From positions 1-63,731 of the IMG/VR virus record IMGVR_UViG_3300033145_001147: a stretch of 63,731 nt of DNA; one strand, 5' to 3'. The position numbers and the translations under genes are program-made. The notes beneath the pieces were generated by a model. That model was not told where the DNA came from, did not search any database, and saw only the letters and a list, made by a program, of their open reading frames with translations. Shown here one piece after another: positions 8,346 to 58,724 of the stretch (position 1 is the stretch's first letter; every line of letters starts with the position of its first letter). The stretch is from a virus (Duplodnaviria; Caudoviricetes).

Positions 8346-8951
8346 TGGTGTGATACACCTTATACTTGGAATTGGGTTGGAACAAAATTCAAACATCCCA
8401 AAAAGTTTGAAATAGATGATGAGGTTCATAAAATGACTTACAGTGAGGTTATTTTAGAACTTATTCATTTAGATAATCATGTTAAATCTTTGGTTATCTC
8501 TGGCGGAGAACCTCTCCTTCAGCAAAAAAACCTTATTCCTTTATTGGAAGTTTTGAAAAGTGCTGGTTGGTGGATTGAAATTGAAACTAATGGGACGATT
8601 TTACCTTTAGATGAGATTTTTAATCTTACTGACCAATTCAATTGTTCGCCTAAACTTTTCAATTCAGGTAATCCTGAAAAAATGAGGATTAGACCTAAAG
8701 TATTAAGGGCTTTGGCTCAAAACAAAAAATCTACTTTTAAGTTTGTTGTAAGTTGTAAAGATGATATTTCTGAAATATTGGCTATGATAGAAAATTTCAA
8801 TATGAAACAAGTATATCTTATGCCTTTAGGAATGACTCCTGACCAACTTGAACAAACCAGAGAGATAACTAAAAGGTTGTGTGTGCAATATAACCTAAAC
8901 TTCTCTGACAGGCTACATATTGTCAAATATGGAGACAAGAGAGGTGTATAA
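8346..8951 (+). CDS. queE: QueE exon 2
   Basis: WCDT, SGGEPLLQ, IETNG, SPKL and RLH radical-SAM QueE motifs. Confidence 0.9.
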   Translation, partial: WCDTPYTWNWVGTKFKHPKKFEIDDEVHKMTYSEVILELIHLDNHVKSLVISGGEPLLQQKNLIPLLEVLKSAGWWIEIETNGTILPLDEIFNLTDQFNCSPKLFNSGNPEKMRIRPKVLRALAQNKKSTFKFVVSCKDDISEILAMIENFNMKQVYLMPLGMTPDQLEQTREITKRLCVQYNLNFSDRLHIVKYGDKRGV

Positions 8952-8958
8952 TTGTGAG

Positions 8959-8997
8959 GGTGGTTGCTTTTATGGAGCCACCTGAACAATTTTTTTT
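8959..8997 (+). terminator. intrinsic terminator
   Basis: GGTGGTT/AGCCACC stem, then a long T run. Confidence 0.6.
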
Positions 8998-9024
8998 ATT
9001 ATTAAAATTTAATCAAATAAAAAA

Positions 9025-9486
9025 ATGATAACAATAGAAAAAGAGATTGGACTTGACTATGCTCATAGATTACTAAACCATGAATCGTTATGTAGTAATT
9101 TACATGGTCATAGAGCGAGAATTCTTATCGGGATTGAAGGGGAATTAATTACAAAAGGGAGTAGTCAGGATATGGTAATTGATTTTAAAGATTTAAAACA
9201 AATTCTTAATGAAAAAATAATGAGTCAGTTAGACCATACTTGTATTGCTTCAGTTGAAGATAAAATTTTATCAGATTTTTTAATCCAAAATAATCAAAGG
9301 TATTTGATAATTAGAGGAATGCCTACTGCAGAGAATTTAGCAAAATGGTGTTTTGATGAGATTAAAGAAGATATAGAAAAATTAGGTTGTAAGGTTGCTT
9401 ATGTTAAGTTTTATGAAACTCCGACGAGTGAAGCAATTTATACAAAAGAAATGGATAATGAAGAAATCGGTAGATTTGTGAGATAG
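9025..9486 (+). CDS. queD: 6-carboxy-5,6,7,8-tetrahydropterin synthase
   Basis: AHRL, CSNLHGH, MVIDF, LDH, PTAENLA, ETPTS. Confidence 0.92.
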   Translation: MITIEKEIGLDYAHRLLNHESLCSNLHGHRARILIGIEGELITKGSSQDMVIDFKDLKQILNEKIMSQLDHTCIASVEDKILSDFLIQNNQRYLIIRGMPTAENLAKWCFDEIKEDIEKLGCKVAYVKFYETPTSEAIYTKEMDNEEIGRFVR

Positions 9487-22437: not shown

Positions 22438-23184
22438 ATGCATAAAAATTTCAAAGATTTAACAGGACAAAAGTTTGGTCGGTTAGTAGTAATTAAAAAA
22501 GTTAATAAAAACAAACAAGGTAAATATTATTGGTTGTGTCAATGTGAATGTGGTAATAAAAAGAAGATTATGGGATGTAATCTTAAAAGTGGAGCTACAA
22601 AAAGTTGTGGTTGTTTACAAAAGGAAATGAGGATGAAAAGAGGTCATATACCTTGGAATAAAGGAATACCAATGAATATAAAAACTAAAAATAAACTTAG
22701 TAATATTTTGAAAGGTAAAAAAAGAACGAAGGAATTTAAAACACATTTATCAAAAATATCAAAAGGAAATACAAGGGCATTAGGATATAAACATACTGAA
22801 AAAGCAAAAAAGAAAATATCTGAAGCACAAATGAAAGAAAAACATCACAATTGGAAAGGAGGAATTACTCCTTTTAGAATTAAAATATGGCGTTCTAAAA
22901 GATATAAAGAATGGAGAGATTCAGTATTTAAATGAGATAATTATACTTGTCAGATGTGTAAATTAAAAGGTTGTAAATTAGAAGCTTATCATATATTAAA
23001 ATTCAGTGATTATGTTTCTAAACGATTTGATGTTAATAATGGAATTACTCTTTGTGTTTTATGCCATAATAAAACAAAAAGAAAAGAAAATAAATATGTC
23101 GATATTTTTAATAAAATAATAAAATTAAAAAAAAATGAAAAAACTTTGCTTTCTAGACACGGAAACAACAGGATTAACACCTAA
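22438..23184 (+). pseudogene. HNH homing endonuclease with in-frame nonsense codon
   Basis: VFK*DNYTCQMC: TGA 22933-22935 where paralogues have Arg; AHH changed to AYH. Confidence 0.8.
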
Positions 23185-23857
23185 AGATAGGTTATGTCAG
23201 GTTGCTTATAAAGTAGAAGATAAAGTTGTAAATGAATATTTCAAACCAGAAGTTCCTATTTGTGTTGATGCAATGTCAGTAAGTCATATTACAAATAAAA
23301 TAGTTGAAGATAAACCAGTTTTCAAAAACAGTGATGTTTATAAAGAATTAGTTCAATTATCTTTAGATGATGATAATATCTTAGTTGCTCATAATGCTCC
23401 TTTTGATATTGATATGCTTTTAAGGGAAGGAATTGAATTTAAGAATTTTATCTGCACAAAAAGGATTGCGCAACATTTGGATGAAGATGCAAAAATTCCA
23501 AGATACAATATGCAATATTTAAGATATTTATTAGATTTAGATGTCGAAGGGACTGCTCATGATGCTTTAGGGGATATTATAGTGCTAGAAGCATTATTTA
23601 ATAGGTTGTTAAAAAGTATGGCTGATAAAAATGATTTACCTCCAGTAGATGAAATGTATAAAATGATGGTAGAGATTTCAAGTAAACCTGCTTTGATTAA
23701 AAAGTTTCCATTTGGGAAACATAAAGGAAAATTATTAAGTGATGTTGTTATTGAAGATAGGGGTTATCTTGAATGGCTTTATGGACAAAAAAGTAATGAG
23801 GAAATTTTGGATGAAGAATGGATATTTACATTGAAACATTATCTACAATTGCCTTAA
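23135..23857 (+). CDS. DEDDh 3'-5' exonuclease (ExoX/DnaQ-like)
   Basis: LDTETTG, AHNAPFD, AHDALGD; C-terminal PFGKHKG. Confidence 0.9.
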   Translation: MKKLCFLDTETTGLTPKDRLCQVAYKVEDKVVNEYFKPEVPICVDAMSVSHITNKIVEDKPVFKNSDVYKELVQLSLDDDNILVAHNAPFDIDMLLREGIEFKNFICTKRIAQHLDEDAKIPRYNMQYLRYLLDLDVEGTAHDALGDIIVLEALFNRLLKSMADKNDLPPVDEMYKMMVEISSKPALIKKFPFGKHKGKLLSDVVIEDRGYLEWLYGQKSNEEILDEEWIFTLKHYLQLP

Positions 23858-23863
23858 TAATAG

Positions 23864-23908
23864 TTATCCACACTTTTACTTGATTATAATAGTTATATAA
23901 TATATAAT
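23864..23908 (+). promoter_or_regulatory. DnaA box plus sigma70-type promoter
   Basis: TTATCCACA 23864-23872, TTGATT-17-TATAAT 23880-23908. Confidence 0.75.
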
Positions 23909-23976
23909 ACATATAAGAAAGTAAAAATATTGTTCTTTGAAAAATGGATAGAGGTAAATTAGAAAAATAACAGCTT

Positions 23977-24240
23977 ATGTTTATATTTACCAAAAAAAAG
24001 AATTTAAAACACAATCAAAAGCCTTTGGATATTTATTTCAGTTCATTGGAAGAGGCTTATGGAAATTTACCAGTCCCTTCAGACGATTGGGCAGGTATTA
24101 GAAAAGAATTATTAAAGTCATACAAAACTGAGTGGGAAGTTGATGAAAAAATCGTTGAATTAGGAAATGCTATTGAAACTATAAGAGAACATTATTTAGA
24201 TGTAGCAGAAGTTTTGGAAAAACAAACAATTTATAGTTAA
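23977..24240 (+). CDS. hypothetical protein enclosed by a 27-bp inverted repeat
   Basis: 87-aa ORF between arms 23927-23953 and 24255-24281. Confidence 0.6.
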   Translation: MFIFTKKKNLKHNQKPLDIYFSSLEEAYGNLPVPSDDWAGIRKELLKSYKTEWEVDEKIVELGNAIETIREHYLDVAEVLEKQTIYS

Positions 24241-24296
24241 TTATTATCAACACACTCTATCCATTTTTTAGAGAACAATATATATAGAAGATGTTC

Positions 24297-24788
24297 TTTG
24301 AAAATTAAATAGAGAGGTAGCCAAAAAGGGAAGGCAATAGGGATAGACCGCTACAATACGAATCTATCCAATTTGTAATAGTGCAGATACAAACCTATGA
24401 GATGACCTTTTTAATTTACCGCCGTGATTTGCAACAAATGTTTGGTAGAATAGCATCGCTGAACAGTAGAGCTAATTATTTAACAACCTTTAAGAAAATG
24501 ATAAATTCTTAAAAAAGTTGTTAAACAAAAAGCGAGTTTAACTCTAATTCTATGTAGGGCAATCCTTGAGTTAATCAATGTCGGGCAGTGATAGGTGTAA
24601 GATAAGTTGAACATCCCATTATCAAAGCTCTCGCAAGGAGTATGGGAGGAGTAATCCAACCAAGTAGGATTTAACAAGCTAATTAAATTTTATTTGGAGT
24701 AATATAGTAAACTGAACTTTTGAACTGGAACTAATAATTAAAAATATGACTAAGTCCAATTTCTCATCCTCTCTATTTAATTTTCAAA
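24297..24788 (+). ncRNA. candidate large structured ncRNA
   Basis: no plus-strand ORF of 60 aa or more, perfect 21-bp closing stem, many internal hairpins and GNRA-type loops. Confidence 0.65.
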
Positions 24789-24824
24789 AGATAAAAAAAT
24801 TAATAATTAATAAGATGAAGTATT

Positions 24825-26318
24825 ATGTCTAAGTTTAACGAAAATACAAAAGAAAAAGATGTGGTTGAAAACCATGAAGGTGCAGTAGCATATTCATTAT
24901 CTCCAGAAATGGAATTATATAGTGCTGTTGTTACATCATCACTTTCTAATAAGTTTTATGAATCAGAAAATGAAACTTTAGAAAGAATTAAAGGATTGAT
25001 TAAAAAAGTTTCTCCAGAATTTGTTGGTAAATTAGCTGTATATGCTAGAGAACAAATGTATTTGAGAAGCATTCCTTTAGTTCTTACTACAGAATTAGCA
25101 AAGATTCATAATGGAGATAATTTAGTAAGTAAAATTGTTCAAAGAGTAGTTAAGAGAGCAGATGAAATTACTGAATTGCTTTCATATTATGCTTTAGCAA
25201 ATGAAAGAACTGATACAAAGAAATTAGGAAAATTATCTAGTCAATTTAGAAAAGGATTAAATTATTCATTTAATAAGTTTAATGAATACAATTTTGCAAA
25301 ATACAATAGAAAGAAAGAAATTACCTTGAAAGATGCTTTGTTTATTGTTCATCCTAAAGCAATTTCAAGAGAACAACAAGATTTGTTTGATAAGATTGTA
25401 GATGATAAATTAGAAGTTCCAGATACTTGGGAAACTCAATTAGGAAAAACTGATGATAGAAAAACAGAATGGGAAGGATTAATTGATAGAAATAGTTTAA
25501 AATATATGGCACTTTTGCGTAATTTACGAAATATCTTGCAAGCAAAAGTTTCGCAAAAGCATTTAACTGTTGTTGCTGGAAGATTAGGTAATAAAGAAGA
25601 AGTTGTTAAATCAAAACAATTCCCATTTAGATTTTTGTCAGCATATAAGGAAATCAAAGATACAGTTGATGGAAAATCTGGAATGATATTAGATGCTTTA
25701 GAAGATGCAATGGTAGCAAGTGCTGAAAATATTCAAGGATTTGATTATGATATTTCAGTATTATTAGCTTGTGATGTATCAGGCTCAATGGAAACTTCAA
25801 TTTCTGATAGAAGTAAAGTTCAGTTATTTGATATCGGTTTATCATTAGCAATGCTTTTGAGAAATAGATGCAAAAATGTTATTACTGGAATGTTTGGAGA
25901 TACTTGGAAAGCAATCAATGTTCCTAAACAAAACATTTTAGCTAATGTAATGGAGTTCCATAAAAGAGAAGGAGAAGTTGGATATTCAACAAATGGATAT
26001 AAAGTTATTCAAGATTTAATTGACAAAAAAATGAAAATTGATAAGATTATGATATTCACAGATTGTCAGTTATGGGATAGCGAAGAAGGATGGGGTGACG
26101 GCAAACATATCAAAGATTTGTGGAAAGAATACAAAAAGATTTCTCCAAATTCAAAATTATACTTATTTGATTTAGCTGGATATGGAGATACTCCGTTATC
26201 AGTAAAAAGAAATGATGTGTTTTTGATTAGTGGTTTTTCAGACAAAGTTTTTGATATGTTGGATGCTTACGAGAATGGTTCTAATGCATTAGATGTTATA
26301 AGTAAAATTGAATTATAA
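24825..26318 (+). CDS. rsr: Ro60/Rsr TROVE-vWA RNA-binding protein
   Basis: KLAVYARE, FAKYNR, TWET, MALLRNLRNI, PFRFLSA, vWA DVSGSM and FTDCQ. Confidence 0.93.
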   Translation: MSKFNENTKEKDVVENHEGAVAYSLSPEMELYSAVVTSSLSNKFYESENETLERIKGLIKKVSPEFVGKLAVYAREQMYLRSIPLVLTTELAKIHNGDNLVSKIVQRVVKRADEITELLSYYALANERTDTKKLGKLSSQFRKGLNYSFNKFNEYNFAKYNRKKEITLKDALFIVHPKAISREQQDLFDKIVDDKLEVPDTWETQLGKTDDRKTEWEGLIDRNSLKYMALLRNLRNILQAKVSQKHLTVVAGRLGNKEEVVKSKQFPFRFLSAYKEIKDTVDGKSGMILDALEDAMVASAENIQGFDYDISVLLACDVSGSMETSISDRSKVQLFDIGLSLAMLLRNRCKNVITGMFGDTWKAINVPKQNILANVMEFHKREGEVGYSTNGYKVIQDLIDKKMKIDKIMIFTDCQLWDSEEGWGDGKHIKDLWKEYKKISPNSKLYLFDLAGYGDTPLSVKRNDVFLISGFSDKVFDMLDAYENGSNALDVISKIEL

Positions 26319-26321
26319 TTT

Positions 26322-27029
26322 ATGAAATATGGTATAATATATAAAGTAGAAAATATTCAGAATAGAAAGATTTATATTGGTCAGACTATTAAATCATTAG
26401 ATGAACGAAAGTATGAACATATATATCAATCTATAAAAAAAGATAGTCAATATTATTTTCATAAAGCAATTAGGAAATATGGAAAAGATAGTTTTAGATG
26501 GAATGTTATTTGTAAATGTAATAATATAGATGAACTTAATGATATAGAAATAAAACAGATAAAAAAACATAATTCAAATAATTGTAAATATGGTTATAAT
26601 TTGGACAGTGGTGGTAGTAATGCTATCCCAAATAAAGAAATAAAAAATAAGATTAGTCAAACATTAAAAGGTCATATAACATCTGATATAACTAAACAAA
26701 AGATTAGAAATTCATTAAAAGGAAATATTCCTTGGAATAAAGGTCAGAAAATAGGGAAAGTAAATATTAGTAAAGATGTAAGAAAAAGAAAAAGTCAATT
26801 ATTAAAAAAACAATGGAAAGATAATAATTTTGTAAATAAAATAAAGAATGCAACATTAAAAGCAAATTCAAAACAATGGATTGTTATAGAACCAAATGGT
26901 AAAGAAATTGTTGTTGATAGATTGGTTGAATTTTGTAAAAAAAATAATTTATGTGACAGAAATATGAGAGCAGTTGCTAATAAAACAAGAAATAGTCATA
27001 AGGGTTGGAAATGTAAGTATTCGATATGA
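26322..27029 (+). CDS. GIY-YIG homing endonuclease
   Basis: GIIY...IYIGQT...R...E...GYN with NUMOD-like C-terminus. Confidence 0.9.
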   Translation: MKYGIIYKVENIQNRKIYIGQTIKSLDERKYEHIYQSIKKDSQYYFHKAIRKYGKDSFRWNVICKCNNIDELNDIEIKQIKKHNSNNCKYGYNLDSGGSNAIPNKEIKNKISQTLKGHITSDITKQKIRNSLKGNIPWNKGQKIGKVNISKDVRKRKSQLLKKQWKDNNFVNKIKNATLKANSKQWIVIEPNGKEIVVDRLVEFCKKNNLCDRNMRAVANKTRNSHKGWKCKYSI

Positions 27030-27088
27030 TGGAAGCATTGGAAAATGGAAGCACAAATGTTAAAGAAATTGAAAAGATAGAGTTATAG
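27017..27088 (+). pseudogene. displaced alternative 3' end of Ro60
   Basis: VFDMMEALENGSTNVKEIEKIEL* versus Ro60 VFDMLDAYENGSNALDVISKIEL*. Confidence 0.8.
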
Positions 27089-27105
27089 TTCATTAAAAAA
27101 ATATA

Positions 27106-27233
27106 AAGGTGCCGTAGATAAGAGTTACTTCTTGGCACTGGCAATGAAGGTTCAATTCCTTCTACTTCGAACATCGGAGTATCGTCTAATGGTAGGACTC
27201 CAGTTTATAGTCTTTTTTCGCTTGTTGCCCCTT
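27106..27233 (+). ncRNA. Y RNA (YrlA-like) 1 with tRNA-like domain
   Basis: terminal stem GGTGCCGTAG / CGCTTGTTGCC; internal T arm GAAGGTTCAATTCCTTC, loop-closed acceptor stem, D arm GTCTAATGGTAGGAC. Confidence 0.82.
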
Positions 27234-27244
27234 ATTCAAAAATT

Positions 27245-27377
27245 AGCAAAGGTGTCGTAGAGGAGAGTTACTTCAACTATTAATTGAAAGGTCGTTGGTT
27301 CGAGTCCAACCAAATCTTCGGATTTGTAGCTCAGTTGGTAGAGCATTATGTTCTTTTTTCGTTTGTTACCCTTTGCT
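27245..27377 (+). ncRNA. Y RNA (YrlA-like) 2 with tRNA-like domain
   Basis: same terminal motifs; T arm GTTGGTTCGAGTCCAAC, CAAATC-TTCG-GATTTG, D arm GCTCAGTTGGTAGAGC. Confidence 0.82.
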
Positions 27378-27387
27378 TGAAATCAAA

Positions 27388-27624
27388 TTGGAGGTGCCGT
27401 AAATAAGAGTTACTTCATCAATAAATTACAGAAGATAGATTCGTCTATCGTCTATATGGAAAATGGATTCGTCTGTTTTCTCCTTAGAAGAGAGTTCGAA
27501 CTCCTATAAATTCATTCGTGGATTTGTAGCCATAAGGCACAAACTTAGATTGCAATTTAATTAGAATCAGTTAAATATTTTAATTGAATTGTTAAATAGT
27601 CTTTTATTGTCTGTCGCCCTCCAA
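27388..27624 (+). ncRNA. Y RNA-like 3, expanded
   Basis: same terminal motifs; extra TTCG-capped hairpins, degenerate T and D arms. Confidence 0.72.
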
Positions 27625-27626
27625 AT

Positions 27627-27698
27627 GGCTCTATCATCTAATGGTAGGATAGCAGGTTTTCGACCTGATAATCGTGGGTTCAATTCCCCGTGGAGTCA
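27627..27698 (+). tRNA. tRNA-Glu(TTC), atypical
   Basis: cloverleaf GGCTCTA/TGGAGTC, anticodon loop TTTTCGA, bulged T stem, no encoded CCA. Confidence 0.7.
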
Positions 27699-27707
27699 CA
27701 AGAATTT

Positions 27708-27773
27708 ATAAGGTGCCGTAGATAAGAGTTACTTCTTCGGATTATTAAGTCTTTTATCGCTTGTTGCCCTTAT
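27708..27773 (+). ncRNA. minimal Y RNA-like 4 (terminal stem only)
   Basis: same 5' and 3' motifs with a short loop and no tRNA-like domain. Confidence 0.72.
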
Positions 27774-27775
27774 AT

Positions 27776-27847
27776 TGCGGGTAGGACGAATGGTAAGTCA
27801 GAAGCCTCATAAGCTTTAGAAATGGGTTCGATTCCCATACTCCGCAA
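27776..27847 (+). tRNA. tRNA with CAT anticodon (Met or Ile2), atypical acceptor stem
   Basis: GAAGC-CTCATAA-GCTTT anticodon arm, ATGGG-TTCGATT-CCCAT T arm. Confidence 0.7.
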
Positions 27848-30582: not shown

Positions 30583-31059
30583 ATGAAGATTAATTATAAA
30601 AAGCTAGAACAAGATTCTAAAAGTCTTGCTCAAAAAATAGAAAAAGGAAAGTATGATGCCGTTTATGGTATTCCTGCTGGTGGTATTCTTCCAGCTTTTA
30701 TTATTTCTAAAGAGTTAGATATCCCTTTGGTATCTGAAATTGAAGAAGGTAAAAATATTTTAGTAGTAGATGATTTAGTTGATTCAGGTGATACAATTCT
30801 TTCTTTAAGAGAAGAATATGGAAACTTTGATGTTGCTGTTATTTATATAAAAGATGTTGATGGAATAGGAGCTTCATTAGTTGAAGTTTATGAAAAACTT
30901 ATCCCAAATGAATGGGTAGATTTACCTCATGAAGGATTAGAATTGCCTATAGAAAATAATATAATAAGAATTTTAGAATATTATAATCAACAAATTACAG
31001 TTGAAGAAGTAAGTAGTCTTAATAATTTAATAAAACAAAGATATGAAAAAACAAAGTAA
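30583..31059 (+). CDS. type I phosphoribosyltransferase (Gpt-like)
   Basis: YGIPAGG, PRPP loop LVVDDLVDSGDT, WVDLPHE. Confidence 0.85.
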   Translation: MKINYKKLEQDSKSLAQKIEKGKYDAVYGIPAGGILPAFIISKELDIPLVSEIEEGKNILVVDDLVDSGDTILSLREEYGNFDVAVIYIKDVDGIGASLVEVYEKLIPNEWVDLPHEGLELPIENNIIRILEYYNQQITVEEVSSLNNLIKQRYEKTK

Positions 31060-32089
31060 ATGTAAAGTTTGTGGTAAGAAGTTTTCTTTTGACGATTCTG
31101 TTCAAAAAGGATTATATTGTTGTGTTAAATGTCGTTATGCAGACCATTCTAATATTATAAAAGATAGTTATACTCCAGAACTTAAAAAATTACGTTCTGA
31201 ACATGCAAAAGAACAGATGAAAGACAAGAAGCAAATAGAAATTCGTCAACAAAAATGTGGATATAAAATGACTGACGAACAAAGGGAAAAACTATCAGAT
31301 TCAAAAATTAAAAATTCTTTTACTAGGGCTAAAAAGTTAATTATAAAGGAGAGAGGAGAATTTTGTGAAAGATGTGGGAAAGATATTTCTGATTGGCAAT
31401 TAACTGTCCATCATAAAAACGGAAGAAAATGGGATAATGATTTAGATAATTTGCAAATACTTTGTCGTTCTTGTCATTCTAAATTACATAATCAGATAGG
31501 GAAATTGTCTAGTCATTTTGCAGGATTAGCAACAGTTGAAAATTATATTGCTTTAATGCTTCAACATTTAGGAGTTGATTTAGATGACCCTGATTTCAAA
31601 GAAACTCCATTAAGAGTAGCAAGAATGTATAATGAACAATTTGAAGGATTAAAACCTGAAGCTAAAGATGAAATAAAAAATATATTTGGCACAAGATTTC
31701 CTTGTGAAAATGATAATATGGTTGTTATAGATGATATTCGAGTTTATAGTTTGTGTCCTCATCATTTGGTGACGATAATTTATGATATAGCAATTGGTTA
31801 TGTTCCTAATAAATTTGTATTAGGATTGTCTAAATTTGCACGAATAAGTGAGTTATTAGCTCATAAACCTGTTATTCAAGAAACTTTTACTGCTGAACTT
31901 GGTAAGGCAATAGAGGATGAATTGAAACCTCTCGGTGTTGCGGTTAGGATAAAGGGAACTCATTTTTGTATGGTATCAAGAGGAGCAAAACAACAAAATT
32001 CTAAAACTATGACGGCATATATGTCTGGAGTATTTAGAGATAATAAAGACAATTCTAGAAGTGAATTTTATAAGTTAATAGAAAAATAA
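31043..32089 (+). CDS. folE: HNH endonuclease fused to GTP cyclohydrolase I
   Basis: N-terminal CERC..HH..N..CRSCH; C-terminal ETPLRVAR, SLCPHH, GLSKFAR, IQE, HFCMVSRG. Confidence 0.9.
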   Translation: MKKQSKCKVCGKKFSFDDSVQKGLYCCVKCRYADHSNIIKDSYTPELKKLRSEHAKEQMKDKKQIEIRQQKCGYKMTDEQREKLSDSKIKNSFTRAKKLIIKERGEFCERCGKDISDWQLTVHHKNGRKWDNDLDNLQILCRSCHSKLHNQIGKLSSHFAGLATVENYIALMLQHLGVDLDDPDFKETPLRVARMYNEQFEGLKPEAKDEIKNIFGTRFPCENDNMVVIDDIRVYSLCPHHLVTIIYDIAIGYVPNKFVLGLSKFARISELLAHKPVIQETFTAELGKAIEDELKPLGVAVRIKGTHFCMVSRGAKQQNSKTMTAYMSGVFRDNKDNSRSEFYKLIEK

Positions 32090-32090
32090 T

Positions 32091-32795
32091 ATGGATGTAA
32101 AAAAAGCAGTTGTCGTTCTTTCAGGGGGAATGGATAGCACAACATTATTGTATAGGGTTATAAATGAAGGATTTGAAGTTTCTGTCTTGTCTTTTGATTA
32201 TGGTCAAAGACATAAGAAAGAGTTAGAAGTTGCAAAAAAGACTTGTGAGAAATTAAATGTCTTACATAAGATAATTGATTTGACAAGTGTTAAGCAAGTT
32301 ATGAAGAATTCTGCCTTGACAGATGACATAGAAGTGCCTGAAGGGCATTATGCAGACGAGAATATGAAATCAACAGTTGTTCCTAATAGAAATATGATTA
32401 TGGCTTCGATTGCGATTGCAGAAGCAGTTTCTATTGAAGCGGAAGCTGTTTATTTAGGAGTTCATGGAGGCGACCATGACATTTATCCAGATTGTCGTAA
32501 AGAGTTTATAGAAAAATTGAATGATGTTTCTAAGATTGCTAATTATCATTCAGTTGAAATTCGAGCCCCTTATTTAGAAATGGATAAGGGAGATATTCTT
32601 ATTGAAGGAAAAGAATTAGGAGTTGATTATTCTTTTACACGAACTTGTTATCAAGCTGGAGAAAAATCATGTGGTCGATGTGGTTCCTGTATAGAACGTA
32701 TCTTGGCATTTAAGAAAGCAGGTTGTATTGACCCTATTTTTTATGAAAAATCATGGGAAGAAGTTTTACAACATGCAGAAAAATTGGATAAATAG
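32091..32795 (+). CDS. queC: 7-cyano-7-deazaguanine synthase
   Basis: SGGMDS, YGQRH, VPNRN, YPDCR, CY...CGRCGSC. Confidence 0.95.
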   Translation: MDVKKAVVVLSGGMDSTTLLYRVINEGFEVSVLSFDYGQRHKKELEVAKKTCEKLNVLHKIIDLTSVKQVMKNSALTDDIEVPEGHYADENMKSTVVPNRNMIMASIAIAEAVSIEAEAVYLGVHGGDHDIYPDCRKEFIEKLNDVSKIANYHSVEIRAPYLEMDKGDILIEGKELGVDYSFTRTCYQAGEKSCGRCGSCIERILAFKKAGCIDPIFYEKSWEEVLQHAEKLDK

Positions 32796-32820
32796 AAAAT
32801 TATAGGTTATAATATAACCT

Positions 32821-33417
32821 ATGAAATGTCTTAATTGTAATGAAGAAATAAATAATAAAAAATTTTGTGATATTAAATGTTATCAAGAATTTAGAAAACA
32901 ATTATATGATGAAAAATATACAAAACAATGTTTAGTTTGTGGTAATTATTTTAGATGTAAATCTACAGCTCCTAAAACTAAAACTTGTGGAAAAATATGT
33001 TTAAGTAAATTATTTTCTCAAAGAAAATGGTCAAAAGTTACAAATAAGAAAAGGTCTAACACTTTAATAAAATATTGGAATAGCCGAATAAGAATAGGTA
33101 TATTACATACAAAAGATGAAAAAAGAAGAATTAAAGAAAGTTGTAAAGGAATAAATAAAAAAGATAAAAACGGTAATTGGAAAGGAGGAATTTCAACTGA
33201 AAATAATTTATTAAGAAATAGTCCTGAATATTGTGATTGGAGAAAGAAAGTTTTTGAAAGAGATAATTATACTTGTCGGAAATGTGGAGATAAAGGAATT
33301 GAATTAAATGCTCATCATAAAAAATCTTTTTCTAAATATATTGAACTAAGATTTGATATTAATAATGGTTTAACTTTATGTAAACAATGTCACAAACAAA
33401 TACATCAAAAAAAATAA
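32821..33417 (+). CDS. HNH homing endonuclease
   Basis: [12 protein letters not shown]...AHHK...[10 protein letters not shown]. Confidence 0.88.
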
Positions 33418-33509
33418 AAGGGGAAGAAAAACCCTGTGGTAAATGTGGTTCTTGTGTTGAAAGAGCGGAAGGGTTTGTAAGAGCGGGAATGATTGACCCT
33501 ACATTATAA
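33417..33509 (+). pseudogene. displaced alternative 3' end of queC
   Basis: [30 protein letters not shown] mirrors QueC GEKSCGRCGSCIERILAFKKAGCIDP. Confidence 0.85.
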
Positions 33510-33513
33510 AAAT

Positions 33514-33903
33514 ATGAAGATAAGATTACCTAAAAGTGATGAAATTGATGAAACACAAAAATTAATGAATCAATTTTATTTCATGTATAAAAAAGCATTA
33601 ATAGAATACATAAAAAGTTTTTGTGTTTTTATTGCCGAAGAAGATGATACAATTGTGGGAATAATACTTTATAACAAAAAAAGAAATAAAATACTTTTAT
33701 TAGTTATTAAAAAAGAATATAGAAGGAAAAATATAGGAAAAAAATTATTTGAAACATCAAGAACGATATTAAACTTAAAAAAGATAAAAATATTAGCTGT
33801 TGAAGAAAGTATTAATTTTTGGCAATCAATTGGTTTTTACAAGACTAATAAATTTGAAAAAACTAAACATAAGATATTAACAGAAATGGAATGGGGGATA
33901 TAA
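33514..33903 (+). CDS. GNAT family N-acetyltransferase
   Basis: VGII, motif A VIKKEYRRKNIGK, motif B INFWQSIGF. Confidence 0.85.
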   Translation: MKIRLPKSDEIDETQKLMNQFYFMYKKALIEYIKSFCVFIAEEDDTIVGIILYNKKRNKILLLVIKKEYRRKNIGKKLFETSRTILNLKKIKILAVEESINFWQSIGFYKTNKFEKTKHKILTEMEWGI

Positions 33904-33931
33904 GTTTATAAAATAATAACAAGATAAAAAT

Positions 33932-34366
33932 ATGAAAAACTATGGTTCAAAAGAAGTAGATAAAATGGTTAATACAAAGAATTGGGAACTTTGGGATGCT
34001 CCCAAGAATTCAACTCCGATTTATCAATATTTTCCAGAGTTTACTTGTTTATGTCCGAGAAGTGGTTACCCTGATTTTGCAAAAGTGCATATTATTTCAG
34101 TTGCAAATAAGAAAGTTTTGGAGTTGAAAGATTTAAAGTTATGGCTTAATTCTTTCAGAAATGTGGGAATTAGTCATGAAAATGCAACAAATCTTATTGC
34201 TGAAACTTTAATGAAAAAATTAAAATTAAAATATATTTTTGTCTTAATGGAATATTCTCCTAGAGGTAATTTACATACTTTACCTATGGTAGAACTGAAA
34301 AGACAATATAAATTAAGTAATGAAGTCGTTCAAATAAAAAAGAAATTAATAGATAAGGTAATATAA
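33932..34366 (+). CDS. queF: preQ0 reductase, unimodular QueF
   Basis: EFTCLCP..G.PDFA, QueF-like motif ELKDLKLW, SHE, PRG. Confidence 0.85.
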   Translation: MKNYGSKEVDKMVNTKNWELWDAPKNSTPIYQYFPEFTCLCPRSGYPDFAKVHIISVANKKVLELKDLKLWLNSFRNVGISHENATNLIAETLMKKLKLKYIFVLMEYSPRGNLHTLPMVELKRQYKLSNEVVQIKKKLIDKVI

Positions 34367-38624: not shown

Positions 38625-38680
38625 AAAATACATTATAATAGTTATAGTTCATTAAAAATTGGGGTCAAGAATTAAAATAT

Positions 38681-39028
38681 ATGAAGAAGAAAAAAGAAGA
38701 AAAAATCCTTAAATGGAGATTAAAAGATAAGCCAACTGTAGATGATGTCACACAGTTGCTAGACAAAGGGCTTTTGTCTAAAGATGAAGCAAGACAAATA
38801 ATTCTTGATGAAACAGATATCAAGCATTCAGATATTCTTGCATTACAAGATGAGATTAAATTATTAAGAGAATTAGTTTTGAAAATATCAGAACAAAATT
38901 CGCGATTACAAGTTATTAAAATTATTGAAAGAAATATTGATAATGTTCCTTTCAGATGGACACAACCTTATACAGTTTATTGTAGCAATCTACACGATGA
39001 AAATAGTGGAACATTTAGATTAAATTAA
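38681..39028 (+). CDS. hypothetical protein enclosed by a 27-bp inverted repeat
   Basis: 115-aa ORF between arms 38642-38668 and 39043-39069. Confidence 0.7.
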   Translation: MKKKKEEKILKWRLKDKPTVDDVTQLLDKGLLSKDEARQIILDETDIKHSDILALQDEIKLLRELVLKISEQNSRLQVIKIIERNIDNVPFRWTQPYTVYCSNLHDENSGTFRLN

Positions 39029-39086
39029 TTATTAGTGATAATTTGACCCCAATTTTTAATGAATTATAAATTAGCTAAAAGATGTA

Positions 39087-54660: not shown

Positions 54661-55104
54661 ATGAAAAAATTGAAAATCGGAGATAAATACTATGAACTAA
54701 AGGAAGTTGATAAAACTACTACAGAAGAAGTTCCTGCAGAAACACCTGCAGAAGAAGTTCCTGCTGAAGTTGTTGAAGAAACTTCTGTAGTTGAAGAAAC
54801 TCCCGTAGAAGAACCTACAGAAAATGTGGACAAAAAAATTGAAGCTGCTACAGAAAAAATCGTTGCCTCATTAGGGTTAGATAAAATTCATGAAAAACTA
54901 GATGTTCTTTCTGAAAAGAAAGAAGTTAAAGACACTAAACCATCTGCTTTGATTGATTTAGAAACTTTAATGAAGAAAGATGTCAGTGAAATGACAACTA
55001 AGGAAAAAATTGTTGGATTTTTCCAAGCTATGATTAAGAATAACCAACCTGTTTTGAAAGCTCTTTCTGAAGGAACTGCTGCTGATGGAGGATATCTATT
55101 CCCT
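54661..55104 (+). CDS. major capsid protein exon 1
   Basis: acidic delta-domain-like N-terminus ending GTAADGGYLFP. Confidence 0.88.
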
Positions 55105-55950
55105 AAATTCGTTGGGGCATAAGTATGTGAGTATTTATGAAAATTCGGTGAATTGCTGGAAACTCCTAAAAAGGACAATCAGCAGCCAAGTTATTATCTA
55201 AATGGTAATAAAAGGTTCAACGACTAGGTTTTGAAACTCTTTTAGAGAATATAATAAACCCATGAGTGCCGAACTTCTTGAATTTAGAACTGAAGTATTA
55301 TATAATAGTTATATGAGAAAAGGTTCAAAAATGACAATTAAACAAAGAAAAAGAGTAAGTGAAGGACATCTTGGACAACCAGGTTGGAATAAAGGTAAAA
55401 AGATGTCAAAAGAGTTTTGTGAAAAAATAAGAATTGCCAATTTAGAAGGAAGATGTGGAATGAAAGGTAGAAAACATAGTGCTGAAACTAAATTGAAACA
55501 AAGTAAAAGTAATAAAACAAAACTTCTTTGGAAAAATCCTGAATACCGAAAAATGATGTCAGAAAAACATAAATGGCAGAGTGGTAAAAATAATCCAGCA
55601 TATATAGACGGAAGAAAACCATTAGTAATGAGAATAAGACATCATCCTAAAATGAAAAATTGGATTAAACAGGTTTTTGAAAGAGATAATTATATTTGTC
55701 AGGATTGTAAACAGCGAGGCAAAAAATTAGAAGCTCATCATTTATATCCTTTTTCAAAAATAATTACTGAATATAAAATAAAGACCATCAAACAAGCCTT
55801 ACAATGTGAAATAATGTGGGACTTGAATAATGGACAAACTCTTTGTAAAAATTGTCATAAAAAAATAAATACAAGAAGATGATATAGTCTGACCTGCAAC
55901 TATATATAAAATTGCAGAAGTAGTAATTAAAAAAACTACGATAACATATG
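55105..55950 (+). mobile_element. group I intron 1 in major capsid gene
   Basis: U.G P1, GAATTGCTGGAA, AATCAGCAG, CAACGACTA, GATATAGTC, terminal G. Confidence 0.9.
55313..55882 (+). CDS. intron-encoded HNH endonuclease (NUMOD3 repeats)
   Basis: VFERDNYICQDC..AHH..NGQTLCKNCH; promoter TTGAAT-17-TATAAT 55278-55306. Confidence 0.88.
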   Translation: MRKGSKMTIKQRKRVSEGHLGQPGWNKGKKMSKEFCEKIRIANLEGRCGMKGRKHSAETKLKQSKSNKTKLLWKNPEYRKMMSEKHKWQSGKNNPAYIDGRKPLVMRIRHHPKMKNWIKQVFERDNYICQDCKQRGKKLEAHHLYPFSKIITEYKIKTIKQALQCEIMWDLNNGQTLCKNCHKKINTRR

Positions 55951-56165
55951 GACGAATTCAGATATGAAATCATTAGAGATATCGCAGAAGATAGCCATAG
56001 AATGAGAAATGATGTGACTGTTGTTCCTATGAAAAGAGATGTTATGAATATCCCTTCATTGGAATCTAGACCACAAGTAACATGGACGGAAGAAAATGCT
56101 ACTAAATCTACAACAACTGCTCATTTTGGTCAAATCACTTTGACAGTAAAGAAAATGGCTGCCAT
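55951..56165 (+). CDS. major capsid protein exon 2
   Basis: DEFRYEII...WTEENATK...FGQITLTVKKMAA. Confidence 0.88.
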
Positions 56166-56907
56166 TAACTTACAAGGTGGCAGAAGGGTGCGAACCCTAA
56201 AGAAAAATGCCGTGAATTGCTGGAACACCCAAAATGGAATAAGAAGCCCATATTGGACAATCAGCAGCCAAGCTTTACCAGTAATGGTTTAGAAGGTTCA
56301 ACGACTAGGGAGCGAATCCTTGATAGGATAGTAATCTCCCCACGAGCGCGGTGCTCTGTTCTTTAACAAATTACATTTGATAAGCAAGAGATTTTAATAT
56401 ATAATATATATATGAATAAAAAATCACTAGCAAATCTTACATATAAATATAAAAAAGGTTGTATTCCTTGGAACAAAGGATTGTCTGCAAAAAATAATGA
56501 GTCAATGAAAAAAATTGCAGAATCAAGAAAAGGAAATAAACATCCTTTGTGGAAAGGTGGAAAAGCAAAAGCAACTGGAGGATACATTAAAATTAAAATG
56601 CCAAATCATCCAAATGCTAATTGTGAAGGATATATTTTAGAACATCGTTTAGTTATGGGAAAAGTTTTAAAAAGAAATCTTTTACCTCATGAAGAAGTTC
56701 ATCATATAAATGGTATAAAAGATGATAATCGTCCAGAAAATTTAGAGATTGTCCTTAAATATAAACATTTTGGAAATATTTGCTGTCCATATTGTAAGAA
56801 AAATTTTAAAATCAAATAATTTGTTAAAGAACAGAAGATGATATAGTCTGACCTTTATGGTAACATAAAGAAGTATTGGATAAAGAGCCAATATAATAAC
56901 AAAAATG
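56166..56907 (+). mobile_element. group I intron 2 in major capsid gene
   Basis: P1 CTGCCAT/GTGGCAG, P10 TACAAG/CTTGTA, conserved core, terminal G 56907. Confidence 0.9.
56412..56819 (+). CDS. intron-encoded HNH endonuclease
   Basis: EHRLVM...VHHINGIKDDNRPENL; promoter TTGATA-17-TATAAT. Confidence 0.88.
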   Translation: MNKKSLANLTYKYKKGCIPWNKGLSAKNNESMKKIAESRKGNKHPLWKGGKAKATGGYIKIKMPNHPNANCEGYILEHRLVMGKVLKRNLLPHEEVHHINGIKDDNRPENLEIVLKYKHFGNICCPYCKKNFKIK

Positions 56908-57418
56908 CTTGTATGCTTCTGATGAATTGATTGATGATGCATCTGAAATTGATATTGTAAACTTCATCATAGGATTATTCTCTGAAGCTATCGGAGAAGA
57001 AGAAGATAGAGTTGTTTGGAGAGGTAATGGAACTACAGAACCTACAGGAATTGTAACAGCACAAGCTACTGGAACTATTTCAGGAAGAACTTGTTCAGGA
57101 AACCTTTCAGTTGATAACATGATTGATTTGTTATATGATTTGCCAGCAAAATGGCAAAAGAATGCTAAACTATATGTTCATAGAACAAATATTAGAGAAT
57201 TGCGAAAATTGAAGGATTCTAATAACAGATACTATTGGTCAGAACCAGTAGCAGCTGGATTAGCTCCTACATTTATGGGATACTCTGTTATTGAAACTAA
57301 TGAATTAAGTGAAGCACAAATTTACTTTGGAGATATGAAAAAGACTTACTGGTTAGGTGACCGTCAAAAGATGACAGTTAAAATATCGCAAGATACTGAA
57401 ACTGCCTTTACGAAGGAT
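56908..57418 (+). CDS. major capsid protein exon 3
   Basis: LYASDELIDDA...GNGTTEPTGI...LKDSNNRY...FGD...AFTKD. Confidence 0.9.
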
Positions 57419-58356
57419 GGAGAAATTTGGTCCTTCAAAAAGGGGGTGAACTGCTGGAACATCCAAGAAGGAATTTTAAGTCCTTATTGGACAATCAGCA
57501 ACCAAGCTTTCGCAGTAATGCGTTAGAAGGCTCAGAGCATAGATTCCGAGTCCAGAATGGACAGTAATGAATCCACGAGTGCCCTCCAGTTCTTTTACAA
57601 TAGAATATATAGAATAATATTTGATTTTTTGTTAAAATAATTATATAATTATATATATAATATATGATTAAACGTGAAATTATCAAAAAATGGAAATCTG
57701 GTAGAGGTTACAGGTATTTGTTAATTTGTCAGAATTGTGGTGAAGAATTTGAAAAATGTGGGAAACAAATTAATAATGATAAATGTTATTTTTGTTCAGT
57801 TAAATGTAGTAATTCTTTCCCTAAAAAAATAAAACAAATTAATCAGACTAAACAAAATAGATATAAGCAACAAAAACAAAATTCTGGTTATGCTTTTACA
57901 TTAAAAGCAAGGAGAAGAATGAGTGTTGGGCAAAAAGGAAAACCAATATGGAATAAGGGAAAATTTGGTGAAGCAATGCCAAATTGGCAAGGAGGAATAT
58001 CTTTTGAACCTTATACTGCAGAATTTAATAACGGATTAAAATTACAGATTAGAAAAAGAGATAATTACACTTGTCAAGAATGTGGTAAAACAGAAAAACA
58101 ATTAAAAAGAAAGTTAAGTATCCATCACATTGATTATAATAAAAAAAATAATGATGAAAATAATTTAATTTCTCTTTGTAGTAAATGTCACGGAAAAACT
58201 AATTTTAAGAGAAAAGATTGGACAACATATTTCCAAAAAAAATAAAATATTATTCTATGTATTCTATGTAAAAGAATTGATGATATATGCCGAACTGCAA
58301 CTATATATAAAATTGCAGAAGTAGAAGATAAAAAACTTTTACGATAACAAAAATTG
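57419..58356 (+). mobile_element. group I intron 3 in major capsid gene
   Basis: P1 GAAGGAT/GTCCTTC, core with covarying P7 (GCATA/TATGC), terminal G 58356. Confidence 0.88.
57664..58245 (+). CDS. intron-encoded HNH endonuclease
   Basis: RDNYTCQEC..IHHIDYNK..NLISLCSKCH. Confidence 0.88.
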   Translation: MIKREIIKKWKSGRGYRYLLICQNCGEEFEKCGKQINNDKCYFCSVKCSNSFPKKIKQINQTKQNRYKQQKQNSGYAFTLKARRRMSVGQKGKPIWNKGKFGEAMPNWQGGISFEPYTAEFNNGLKLQIRKRDNYTCQECGKTEKQLKRKLSIHHIDYNKKNNDENNLISLCSKCHGKTNFKRKDWTTYFQKK

Positions 58357-58440
58357 CAAACTGCTATCAGAGTTGTTTCAAGAATTGCTGGTAACGTTGT
58401 ATTAGGAGCTTCTTGTCGAGCTTTAGTTCAAATTCCTTAA
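58357..58440 (+). CDS. major capsid protein exon 4
   Basis: QTAIRVVSRIAGNVVLGASCRALVQIP*; not in the ORF track. Confidence 0.85.
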   Translation, partial: QTAIRVVSRIAGNVVLGASCRALVQIP

Positions 58441-58457
58441 ACTTTATAGTTTATATA

Positions 58458-58502
58458 CTTACTGATGGGATATTTACCCCATAGGTATCCCACTTCAGTA
58501 GG
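58458..58502 (+). terminator. long hairpin after capsid gene (terminator or 3' stabiliser)
   Basis: CTTACTGA-TGGGATA / TATCCCA-TCAGTAGG arms. Confidence 0.55.
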
Positions 58503-58517
58503 TTAAATTAAAAAATT

Positions 58518-58724
58518 ATGAAAAAAGTTAAACTATTAAAAGAATATCAAGATTATTCTCGTGGAGAGATAATTGAAGTAAGTAATAATGTTGCTTTCGG
58601 TCTAGTTGATTCTGGAATTGCAAGAAATGTTGTTACTGGAGATTTTATTAAGAAAGTTAGTTTTGGTAAAACTAAATCTTTTGAAAAAGCTCCTTCAACA
58701 AAAAGTTATAGAAAAAGATTATAG
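58518..58724 (+). CDS. small head-associated protein (ribosomal L9 N-terminal-like)
   Basis: MKKVKLLK....GEIIEVS..A..LV..G.A directly after the capsid gene. Confidence 0.6.
   Translation: MKKVKLLKEYQDYSRGEIIEVSNNVAFGLVDSGIARNVVTGDFIKKVSFGKTKSFEKAPSTKSYRKRL

Follow-up and report, generated by a model that had tools for sequence, protein, structure and literature searches.

The window, by which we mean the entire stretch of DNA analysed here, is a 63.7-kb viral record that is estimated to be 77% complete and has a GC content of 28%. Selfish elements are abundant: inteins occur in a helicase, a 767-aa protein and the portal protein, and many HNH genes, one GIY-YIG gene and one LAGLIDADG domain are encoded. 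At least three group I introns, each carrying an HNH ORF (55262–55882, 56412–56819 and 57664–58245), interrupt the capsid gene (54661–58520); Rfam finds only the first of these introns (55099–55274), and the second and third are homologues. A queuosine/7-deazaguanine gene set (8433–9483 and 31043–34363; radical SAM, PTPS, GTP cyclohydrolase I preceded by a fused HNH domain, QueC and QueF-like) suggests base modification of phage DNA or tRNA. RtcB is represented by its C-terminal part only (model positions 314–425; ORF at 2091–2435), so it seems that either the gene is split or the record begins in a broken or intron-bearing RtcB region (898–2435).

Our analysis centres on the leader of a Ro60 gene (24825–26318, + strand; TROVE and vWA domains, TROVE E 7e-35), whose product is most like the Ro60 proteins of Bacteroidota. 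Upstream of this gene, 23922–24793 holds four copies of one ~25-nt arm sequence in alternating orientation, which delimit two modules, both read here on the + strand. In the first, cassette A, a 32-nt left arm (23922–23953) is 88% complementary to the right arm with which it pairs (24255–24286), and the two enclose ORF87 (23977–24240), 87 conserved codons for a small helical protein. Cassette B comprises a left arm (24292–24317), a 450-nt non-coding cargo (24318–24767) and a right arm (24768–24793). Between the two cassettes, the left arms share 87% identity over 23 nt, and a fold of the 926-nt leader contains the closing helices of both cassettes in the minimum free energy (MFE) as well as the centroid structure. 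A match to a sigma-70-like promoter (23880–23908, + strand; 10 of 12 consensus positions) lies upstream of the insertion and is kept in L084, a related metagenome contig introduced below.

Element B measures 492 nt, and its arms (24297–24317 and 24768–24788; 21 nt each, 450 nt apart) are 100% complementary. The helix extends outward on both sides (by 5 nt on the left), where four more pairs, two G·U and two Watson–Crick, follow a single C×A mismatch. The perfect 21-bp stem described in the initial annotation is therefore real and far beyond chance: the window has two perfect 21-mer inverted seeds at most 3 kb apart, and 40 block shuffles produced none. B is non-coding and a member of no curated RNA family. 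The lack of a long plus-strand ORF noted earlier extends to both strands, as no ORF exceeds 65 aa, stops occur throughout all six frames and one open stretch of 63 codons is left. The two longest open stretches match no Pfam or PHROG family, no reading frame of B resembles ORF87 or any other protein of the window, and B is single-copy in the window, with no paralogue there. Its interior does have a higher GC content than the window (33.3% vs. 28.1%), as had been remarked, but this value corresponds to the 92nd percentile of 450-nt windows and is equalled by many coding stretches; the coding cargos described below lie at 26–29%.

As a whole, B folds with a z-score of –4.6. This is mostly due to the terminal helix, since the interior alone (24318–24767) reaches z –1.53 on the + strand, where 9 of 100 shuffles fold as well; on the – strand the interior scores z –2.82, with 1 of 100 shuffles as good. 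The hairpins listed in the initial annotation are indeed present in the MFE structure, but because the interior folds like + strand shuffles, they jointly amount to no more than composition gives, and the notion of an ornate, many-hairpin RNA was not upheld. A 15-bp interior helix with three G·U pairs is found in the + strand fold only, and a sub-domain (24464–24545) contains a long hairpin (24471–24533).

A search of 23800–25300 with 4227 Rfam families, using permissive filters and a threshold of E ≤ 10, returned nothing besides three chance-level rows (E 7.7–9.4). Families without a match include tRNA, YrlA, GOLLD and ROOL, and ARAGORN likewise detected neither a tRNA nor a tmRNA in B. GOLLD and ROOL are both Rfam families, so kinship with them, which had been suspected, finds no support at E ≤ 10; B is like them in being several hundred nucleotides long, non-coding and carried by a phage with tRNA genes, yet differs in having no sign of an elaborate conserved fold. 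The impression that B opens like a tRNA could not be substantiated either, as 24297–24788 contains no match to a tRNA or YrlA model, no T-loop pattern and no GNCGAA (the single CGAA lies at 24359). Intron_gpI gave no match to B at E ≤ 10, a result to be read with the fact that, at gathering score, the same model fails to detect two of the three introns in the capsid gene; B sits between complete genes, with ORF87 ending at 24240 and Ro60 aligning from residue 1.

Readings of B as an integron attC site, retron, hammerhead-type ribozyme or bulge-helix-bulge element were dropped: the conserved GTTC stands at the outer end of long, perfect, bulge-free helices, and there was no reverse transcriptase or integrase gene and no ribozyme family match. 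An antisense pairing of the B interior with the ORF87 start (duplex of –19.0 kcal/mol) was reached by 11 of 300 shuffles with four targets tried, and was thus not significant. Within B, 24729–24749 is 86% identical to 24798–24818 in the Ro60 leader, a possible leader copy with a local alignment score that 17 of 500 shuffles attain.

In bacteria and phages, Ro60 genes typically have YrlA RNAs on the same strand and within 4 kb, and these RNAs combine a 5′ GNCGAA(N)G motif and a terminal stem with a permuted tRNA-like module composed of T-arm, acceptor-like hairpin and D-arm (PMC4201824). By 5′ motif, folds and the Rfam YrlA model, four YrlA-like Y RNA candidates lie on the + strand at 27104–27232, 27247–27375, 27389–27622 and 27708–27776, i.e. 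0.8–1.4 kb downstream of Ro60 and past a GIY-YIG insertion. Their 5′ motifs start at 27108, 27251, 27393 and 27712, and all four units end in a conserved 3′ strand. Three contain the T-arm, acceptor-like hairpin and D-arm in this order; the fourth (27708–27776) consists of the stem without the tRNA-like module. Rfam YrlA (RF02553) aligns to 27264–27375 with 44.4 bits (E 2.2e-8), below its gathering score of 69. Two tRNAs that Rfam recovers and ARAGORN misses (27627–27698 and 27777–27846) are interleaved in the cluster. The same units are found in L084 (5007–6030), where the acceptor-like hairpins differ in sequence yet still pair. The GIY-YIG gene itself (26322–27029) is absent from L084, and the Ro60 3′ end of that contig (4905–4951) aligns twice to the window, at 26232–26278 and 27003–27049, from which it follows that a short segment of the Ro60 3′ end was duplicated with the insertion.

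Element B shares several traits with Y RNAs, being non-coding, encoded on the Ro60 strand less than 4 kb away and closed by a long stem between its two ends. It is, however, about four times longer, has neither the T-arm/acceptor-hairpin/D-arm module nor the 5′ motif, gives no row at E ≤ 10 when 23800–25300 is compared with the RF02553 covariance model, and is not kept with Ro60. The suggested role as a partner of Ro60 sits poorly with L084, whose Ro60 is 86% identical and which has no B, and with the distant phage contig L185, which has an HNH gene in that place; B and Ro60 do not co-occur in either. Judged by these sequence features, B is not the Y RNA of the window's Ro60, and the YrlA-like units at 27104–27776 are its likely partners. 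This corrects the annotation of the Ro60 locus, in that the probable Y RNAs are the conserved YrlA-like cluster downstream of the gene, and this cluster, together with ORF87 beside Ro60, offers concrete material for the hardly studied Ro60 systems of phages.

Comparison with relatives delimits the insertion. L084 (Ro60 86–88% identical) and the window are collinear on either side, and the L084 exonuclease gene is followed by Ro60 after ~22 bp; window positions 23907–24799, and with them both A and B, have no counterpart. L084 also lacks the GIY-YIG gene after Ro60 and an upstream NUMOD3 ORF. As one close relative was compared, loss in L084 is indistinguishable from gain in the window. The flanks facing the empty site are A-rich, and the alignment permits an imperfect repeat of ~13–15 nt without showing one. 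In L185, the HNH gene occupies the place of B between ORF87 and Ro60.

Further borders came from DNA contigs of another metagenome that were fitted to 22900–26400 at 80% likeness. A 1188-nt contig fits only 23927–24280, which is cassette A from arm to arm (37 differences). A 451-nt contig fits from 24292, the first base of the B left arm, shows 30 differences up to 24463 and there passes directly to 24546, so that 24464–24545, the hairpin sub-domain, is skipped or replaced before the match continues. Since the rest of these contigs did not fit 22900–26400 at 80%, A and B seem to be separate in this sample, a separation read from short contigs at one likeness threshold. The B copy is ~17% diverged (30/172), compared with ~10% for ORF87 and ~12% for Ro60, figures that derive from contigs of possibly different strains. 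On the strength of these alignments, A and B are accessory: they are present or absent between close relatives and elsewhere have borders at their arms.

Homologues of B itself were sought widely. No match was obtained in 50,697 phage records (blastn, distant mode), nothing above chance in 80 Ro60 loci from viral contigs, and no homologue among 160 other Ro60 loci (blastn and nhmmer). A 17-mer from B had one unrelated match in viral contigs (51% GC), and a DNA search of the record of a terminase relative, G001, gave chance-level matches only. Long-range repeats upstream of Ro60 in three other contigs (L058, L141 and L087) proved to be sub-threshold YrlA matches or short Y-like stems instead of B-like inserts. 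In L058, an unrelated Ro60 phage, the 28-nt inverted repeat upstream of Ro60 (2101–2875) corresponds to two opposed sub-threshold YrlA-like matches of 33.7 and 28.4 bits.

Cassette A is better represented. ORF87 is a real gene with 13 homologues (52–89% identity) and an invariant LEEAYGNLP block, and its AlphaFold model comprises four helices (pLDDT 77.8). It retrieved no PDB fold at E ≤ 0.001, no Pfam family, PHROG families only at E 0.06–0.13 and no usable atlas match. A long-range stem encloses ORF87 at all three loci compared. In the MAG contig L187, the homologue (556–819) lies inside arms (511–542 and 845–876) that align with those of A, B and D (module D is described below), the B arms being closest (21 of 25 positions, hand-counted on the alignment). 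In L185, a 94-kb viral contig, it lies at 2480–2815 inside 36-nt arms of unrelated sequence that are 81% complementary. ORF87 is located upstream of a TROVE/Ro60 gene in two distant phages, the window and L185, with the HNH gene between them in the latter; no Ro60 was present within the 3.8 kb of L187 examined. As ORF87 adjoins Ro60 in a distant phage too, cassette A would not be a random passenger and, as far as gene order indicates, may be tied to Ro60.

Directly after its ORF87 module, L187 harbors a 136-nt, Y-shaped, stem-closed non-coding element (855–990; z –5.2 on the + strand and –5.1 on the – strand) that matched no Rfam family. Because the left arm of this element overlaps the right arm of the module, the two pairings are mutually exclusive.

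Three further modules in the window, all on the + strand, have related arms. Module D (38642–39069) holds ORF115 (38681–39028) between the terminase and methylase genes inside 27-nt arms (38642–38668 and 39043–39069), the outer part of which matches the L187 arms. Module C (56355–56835) consists of an HNH ORF in a capsid-gene group I intron, bracketed by perfect 19-nt arms (56355–56373 and 56817–56835), and module E (57587–58280) of an HNH ORF in a further group I intron of the same gene, with arms of ~40 nt (about 57587–57639 and 58228–58280). Downstream of its terminase, G001 has nothing in common with the window, which leaves no basis for scoring D as an insertion. A 17-nt outer part of the D left arm (38642–38658) recurs exactly at 27081–27097, upstream of the first Y-like unit, where it has no recognisable partner arm.

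All five arm pairs of the window (A–E) start with GTTC(T/A)TT at the outer end, and from them we derived the shared outer sequence GTTC-W-TT-R-A-M-AA-W-T. This motif has 15 matches compared with 4.07 expected, a count to which the very arms it was derived from contribute 8. Among three related records, the 14-nt outer motif was no commoner than its reversed control in the one large genome. A search of viral contigs with the arm pattern GTTCTTTGAAAANNNNATAGAG yielded 16 single sites, which we took as chance given that the contigs range from 31 to 64% GC and none of the sites has a partner arm.

The arms also co-vary. In an alignment of six modules, the best partner of every left arm is the right arm of the module it belongs to (20–24 of 21–24 columns, vs. 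12–22 with the others), and 15 of 24 arm columns show two-sided changes that keep the pair. Transition mismatches form G·U on the + strand in 11 cases and on the – strand in 4, a modest bias (11/15; one-sided binomial p ~0.06, an estimate), and the four exceptions all fall at or near outer ends that we labelled as frayed post hoc. This preference for sense-strand G·U suggests, without being decisive, that the arms act as RNA helices. The B arms, being perfect, carry no strand information of their own save for their weak outer extension. The terminal helix of B appears to be under selection and to function in the sense RNA. Within the capsid-gene introns, arms C and E fall between core segments, a position where an RNA role is presumably to be expected.

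Taken together, our preferred reading, held with confidence evenly poised between acceptance and doubt, is that B represents a non-coding, accessory member of a family of stem-closed cassettes that resides in the Ro60 leader and whose helix would serve RNA processing or insulation. In such cassettes, two arms pairing with each other over 19–40 nt would tightly enclose a cargo; how the cassettes move is something we infer. The promoter-like site at 23880–23908 would drive a single transcript through A, B and Ro60, in which each arm pair would fold into a long helix of the sense RNA and close its insert off as a domain. The 21–26-bp helix of B probably has a role in RNA processing or insulation, by a mechanism that we infer to involve double-stranded (RNase III-type) processing or stabilisation. 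The insertion might thereby leave Ro60 expression undisturbed, because the helix would loop the insert out of the leader. The cargo of B may have decayed or been replaced. Three observations sit less comfortably with this cassette reading: co-varying inverted ends are also expected of a DNA transposon with terminal repeats, the skipping of a whole hairpin sub-domain in the diverged copy is the type of indel known from real structured RNAs, and the B interior folds at z –2.8 on the – strand.

The first of these observations leads to a rather unlikely alternative, in which B is a miniature transposable element at the DNA level (MITE- or MPME-like), its arms are terminal inverted repeats for a trans-acting transposase or endonuclease, perhaps from C or E, and RNA pairing is incidental. 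A perfect, fully complementary 21-nt terminal repeat, presence or absence between close relatives (L084) and similarity borders at the arms in the second metagenome would all suit such an element, as would the ends of the cassette A arms, which read TG…CA and, if set at TGTTC/GAACA, have ATAT on both sides. Moreover, B and L187 have kept the arm sequence and not pairing alone, as would suit a protein-binding site, and two HNH genes are flanked by related arms. It counts against this alternative that the flanked genes are HNH genes rather than transposases; none of the 80 scanned ORFs matches a transposase or integrase family (E thresholds of 0.01, 1 and 1e-4) in a record estimated to be 77% complete. 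Neither B nor A and B together are surrounded by a clear target duplication, the A-rich flanks being ambiguous, B is single-copy in the window, and the arm pattern shared by A and B occurs across the collection solely as the 16 partnerless sites. Finally, a DNA site would not require mismatches to favour sense-strand G·U, and the arms of C and E, as we read the intron core, form helices within group I introns, a setting in which they must act in RNA.

It is unlikely that B is instead a new large structured RNA, freed by cleavage within its 21–26-bp helix and acting as a substrate, decoy or scaffold with Ro60, the YrlA-like RNAs and RtcB. What recommends this idea is a non-coding element in sense orientation directly upstream of Ro60, a closing helix of a length typical for double-strand-specific processing, somewhat raised GC, the 15-bp helix with its three G·U pairs specific to the + strand, and the skipping of an entire hairpin sub-domain in the diverged copy; the phage carries an RtcB fragment as well as Ro60, and a strongly folded, stem-closed element (136 nt, z –5.2) comes directly after the ORF87 module of L187. 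Against it weigh an interior that is no more stable than + strand shuffles, the lack of any RNA-family match, and the distribution of B, which is missing from L084 despite retention of Ro60 and the Y-like RNAs, missing from L185, and without homologue in the other Ro60 loci and the phage collection searched. The diverged copy also differs more from B (~17%) than the neighboring genes do from theirs, with the proviso that different strains may be involved.

A combined scheme, in which the arm pair forms a plug-in system that lets protein-coding or RNA cargo enter a transcript, fold out and be cut free at its double-stranded base, with B as a new large RNA of ~470 nt working with the RNA-repair set formed by Ro60, YrlA and RtcB, appears decidedly unlikely. 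Highly doubtful is the proposal that B is a functionless wreck of a protein-coding cassette with ORF87-type or endonuclease cargo, its arms intact and its cargo decayed: every other family module holds an ORF tightly bracketed by arms, the B arms are closest to those of the L187 ORF87 module, 63 open codons are left and the second B copy is more diverged than neighboring genes, but no frame of B resembles ORF87, window proteins, Pfam or PHROG families, arms could stay perfect beside a completely decayed cargo only if selection acted on them alone, and the GC content of B (33%) exceeds that of the coding cargos.

B matches none of the nearest described systems exactly, i.e. PeSL cassettes, MPMEs and intron-looped endonuclease ORFs; it lacks tested features of YrlA RNAs, GOLLD/ROOL, group I introns and PeSLs and, in part, of MITEs. 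A limited keyword survey of the literature on phage MITEs, PeSLs, MPMEs and repeat-flanked endonuclease genes returned no description of long-range arm pairs. In T4-type phages, PeSL cassettes are accessory modules, often single ORFs, bordered by a repeated stem-bearing motif, and they undergo insertion, deletion or replacement of whole modules between close relatives and are thought to be insulated from their neighbors (PMC2839356). The cassettes described here are similar in being small accessory modules with stem-containing borders that differ between close relatives. They are unlike PeSLs in that PeSLs are local promoter-plus-terminator units in direct orientation, whereas the arms here flank the cargo in inverted orientation and pair over 300–600 nt, and in that one stem-closed module, B, contains no ORF. 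The arms hold no promoter- or terminator-like site (25 promoter-like sites vs. 29.1 expected, and one terminator-like site elsewhere).

Prokaryotic and viral MITEs, reportedly small elements with inverted ends, can be likened to B alongside the MPMEs. MPME1 of mycobacteriophages measures 439 bp and has the inverted repeats IR-L and IR-R and a 6-bp addition at one end, and MPMEs resemble B in size (~440–500 bp), inverted ends and presence or absence between nearly identical phages (PMC3029335). B differs in having much longer arms (21–26 nt), is single-copy and contains neither an ORF nor a recognisable target signature, and the arm mismatches of its family hint at an RNA role; a relationship to MPMEs and MITEs at the sequence level would not be expected.

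If the cassette reading is true, these modules would constitute a further way of packaging or tolerating accessory modules, through co-evolving arms whose pairing in the sense RNA spans the whole cargo. Phage group I introns have endonuclease ORFs that are looped out of peripheral helices. The likeness to our modules is that a long RNA helix joins the two flanks of a cargo and carries this cargo in its loop, and modules C and E are such cases. By contrast, A, B and D are intergenic, and B has neither a surrounding intron core (no Intron_gpI at E ≤ 10) nor an ORF. The outer arm motif is common to C and E and to the intergenic A, B and D, and under the cassette reading one arm type would serve intron endonuclease genes, intergenic small ORFs and a non-coding insert alike.
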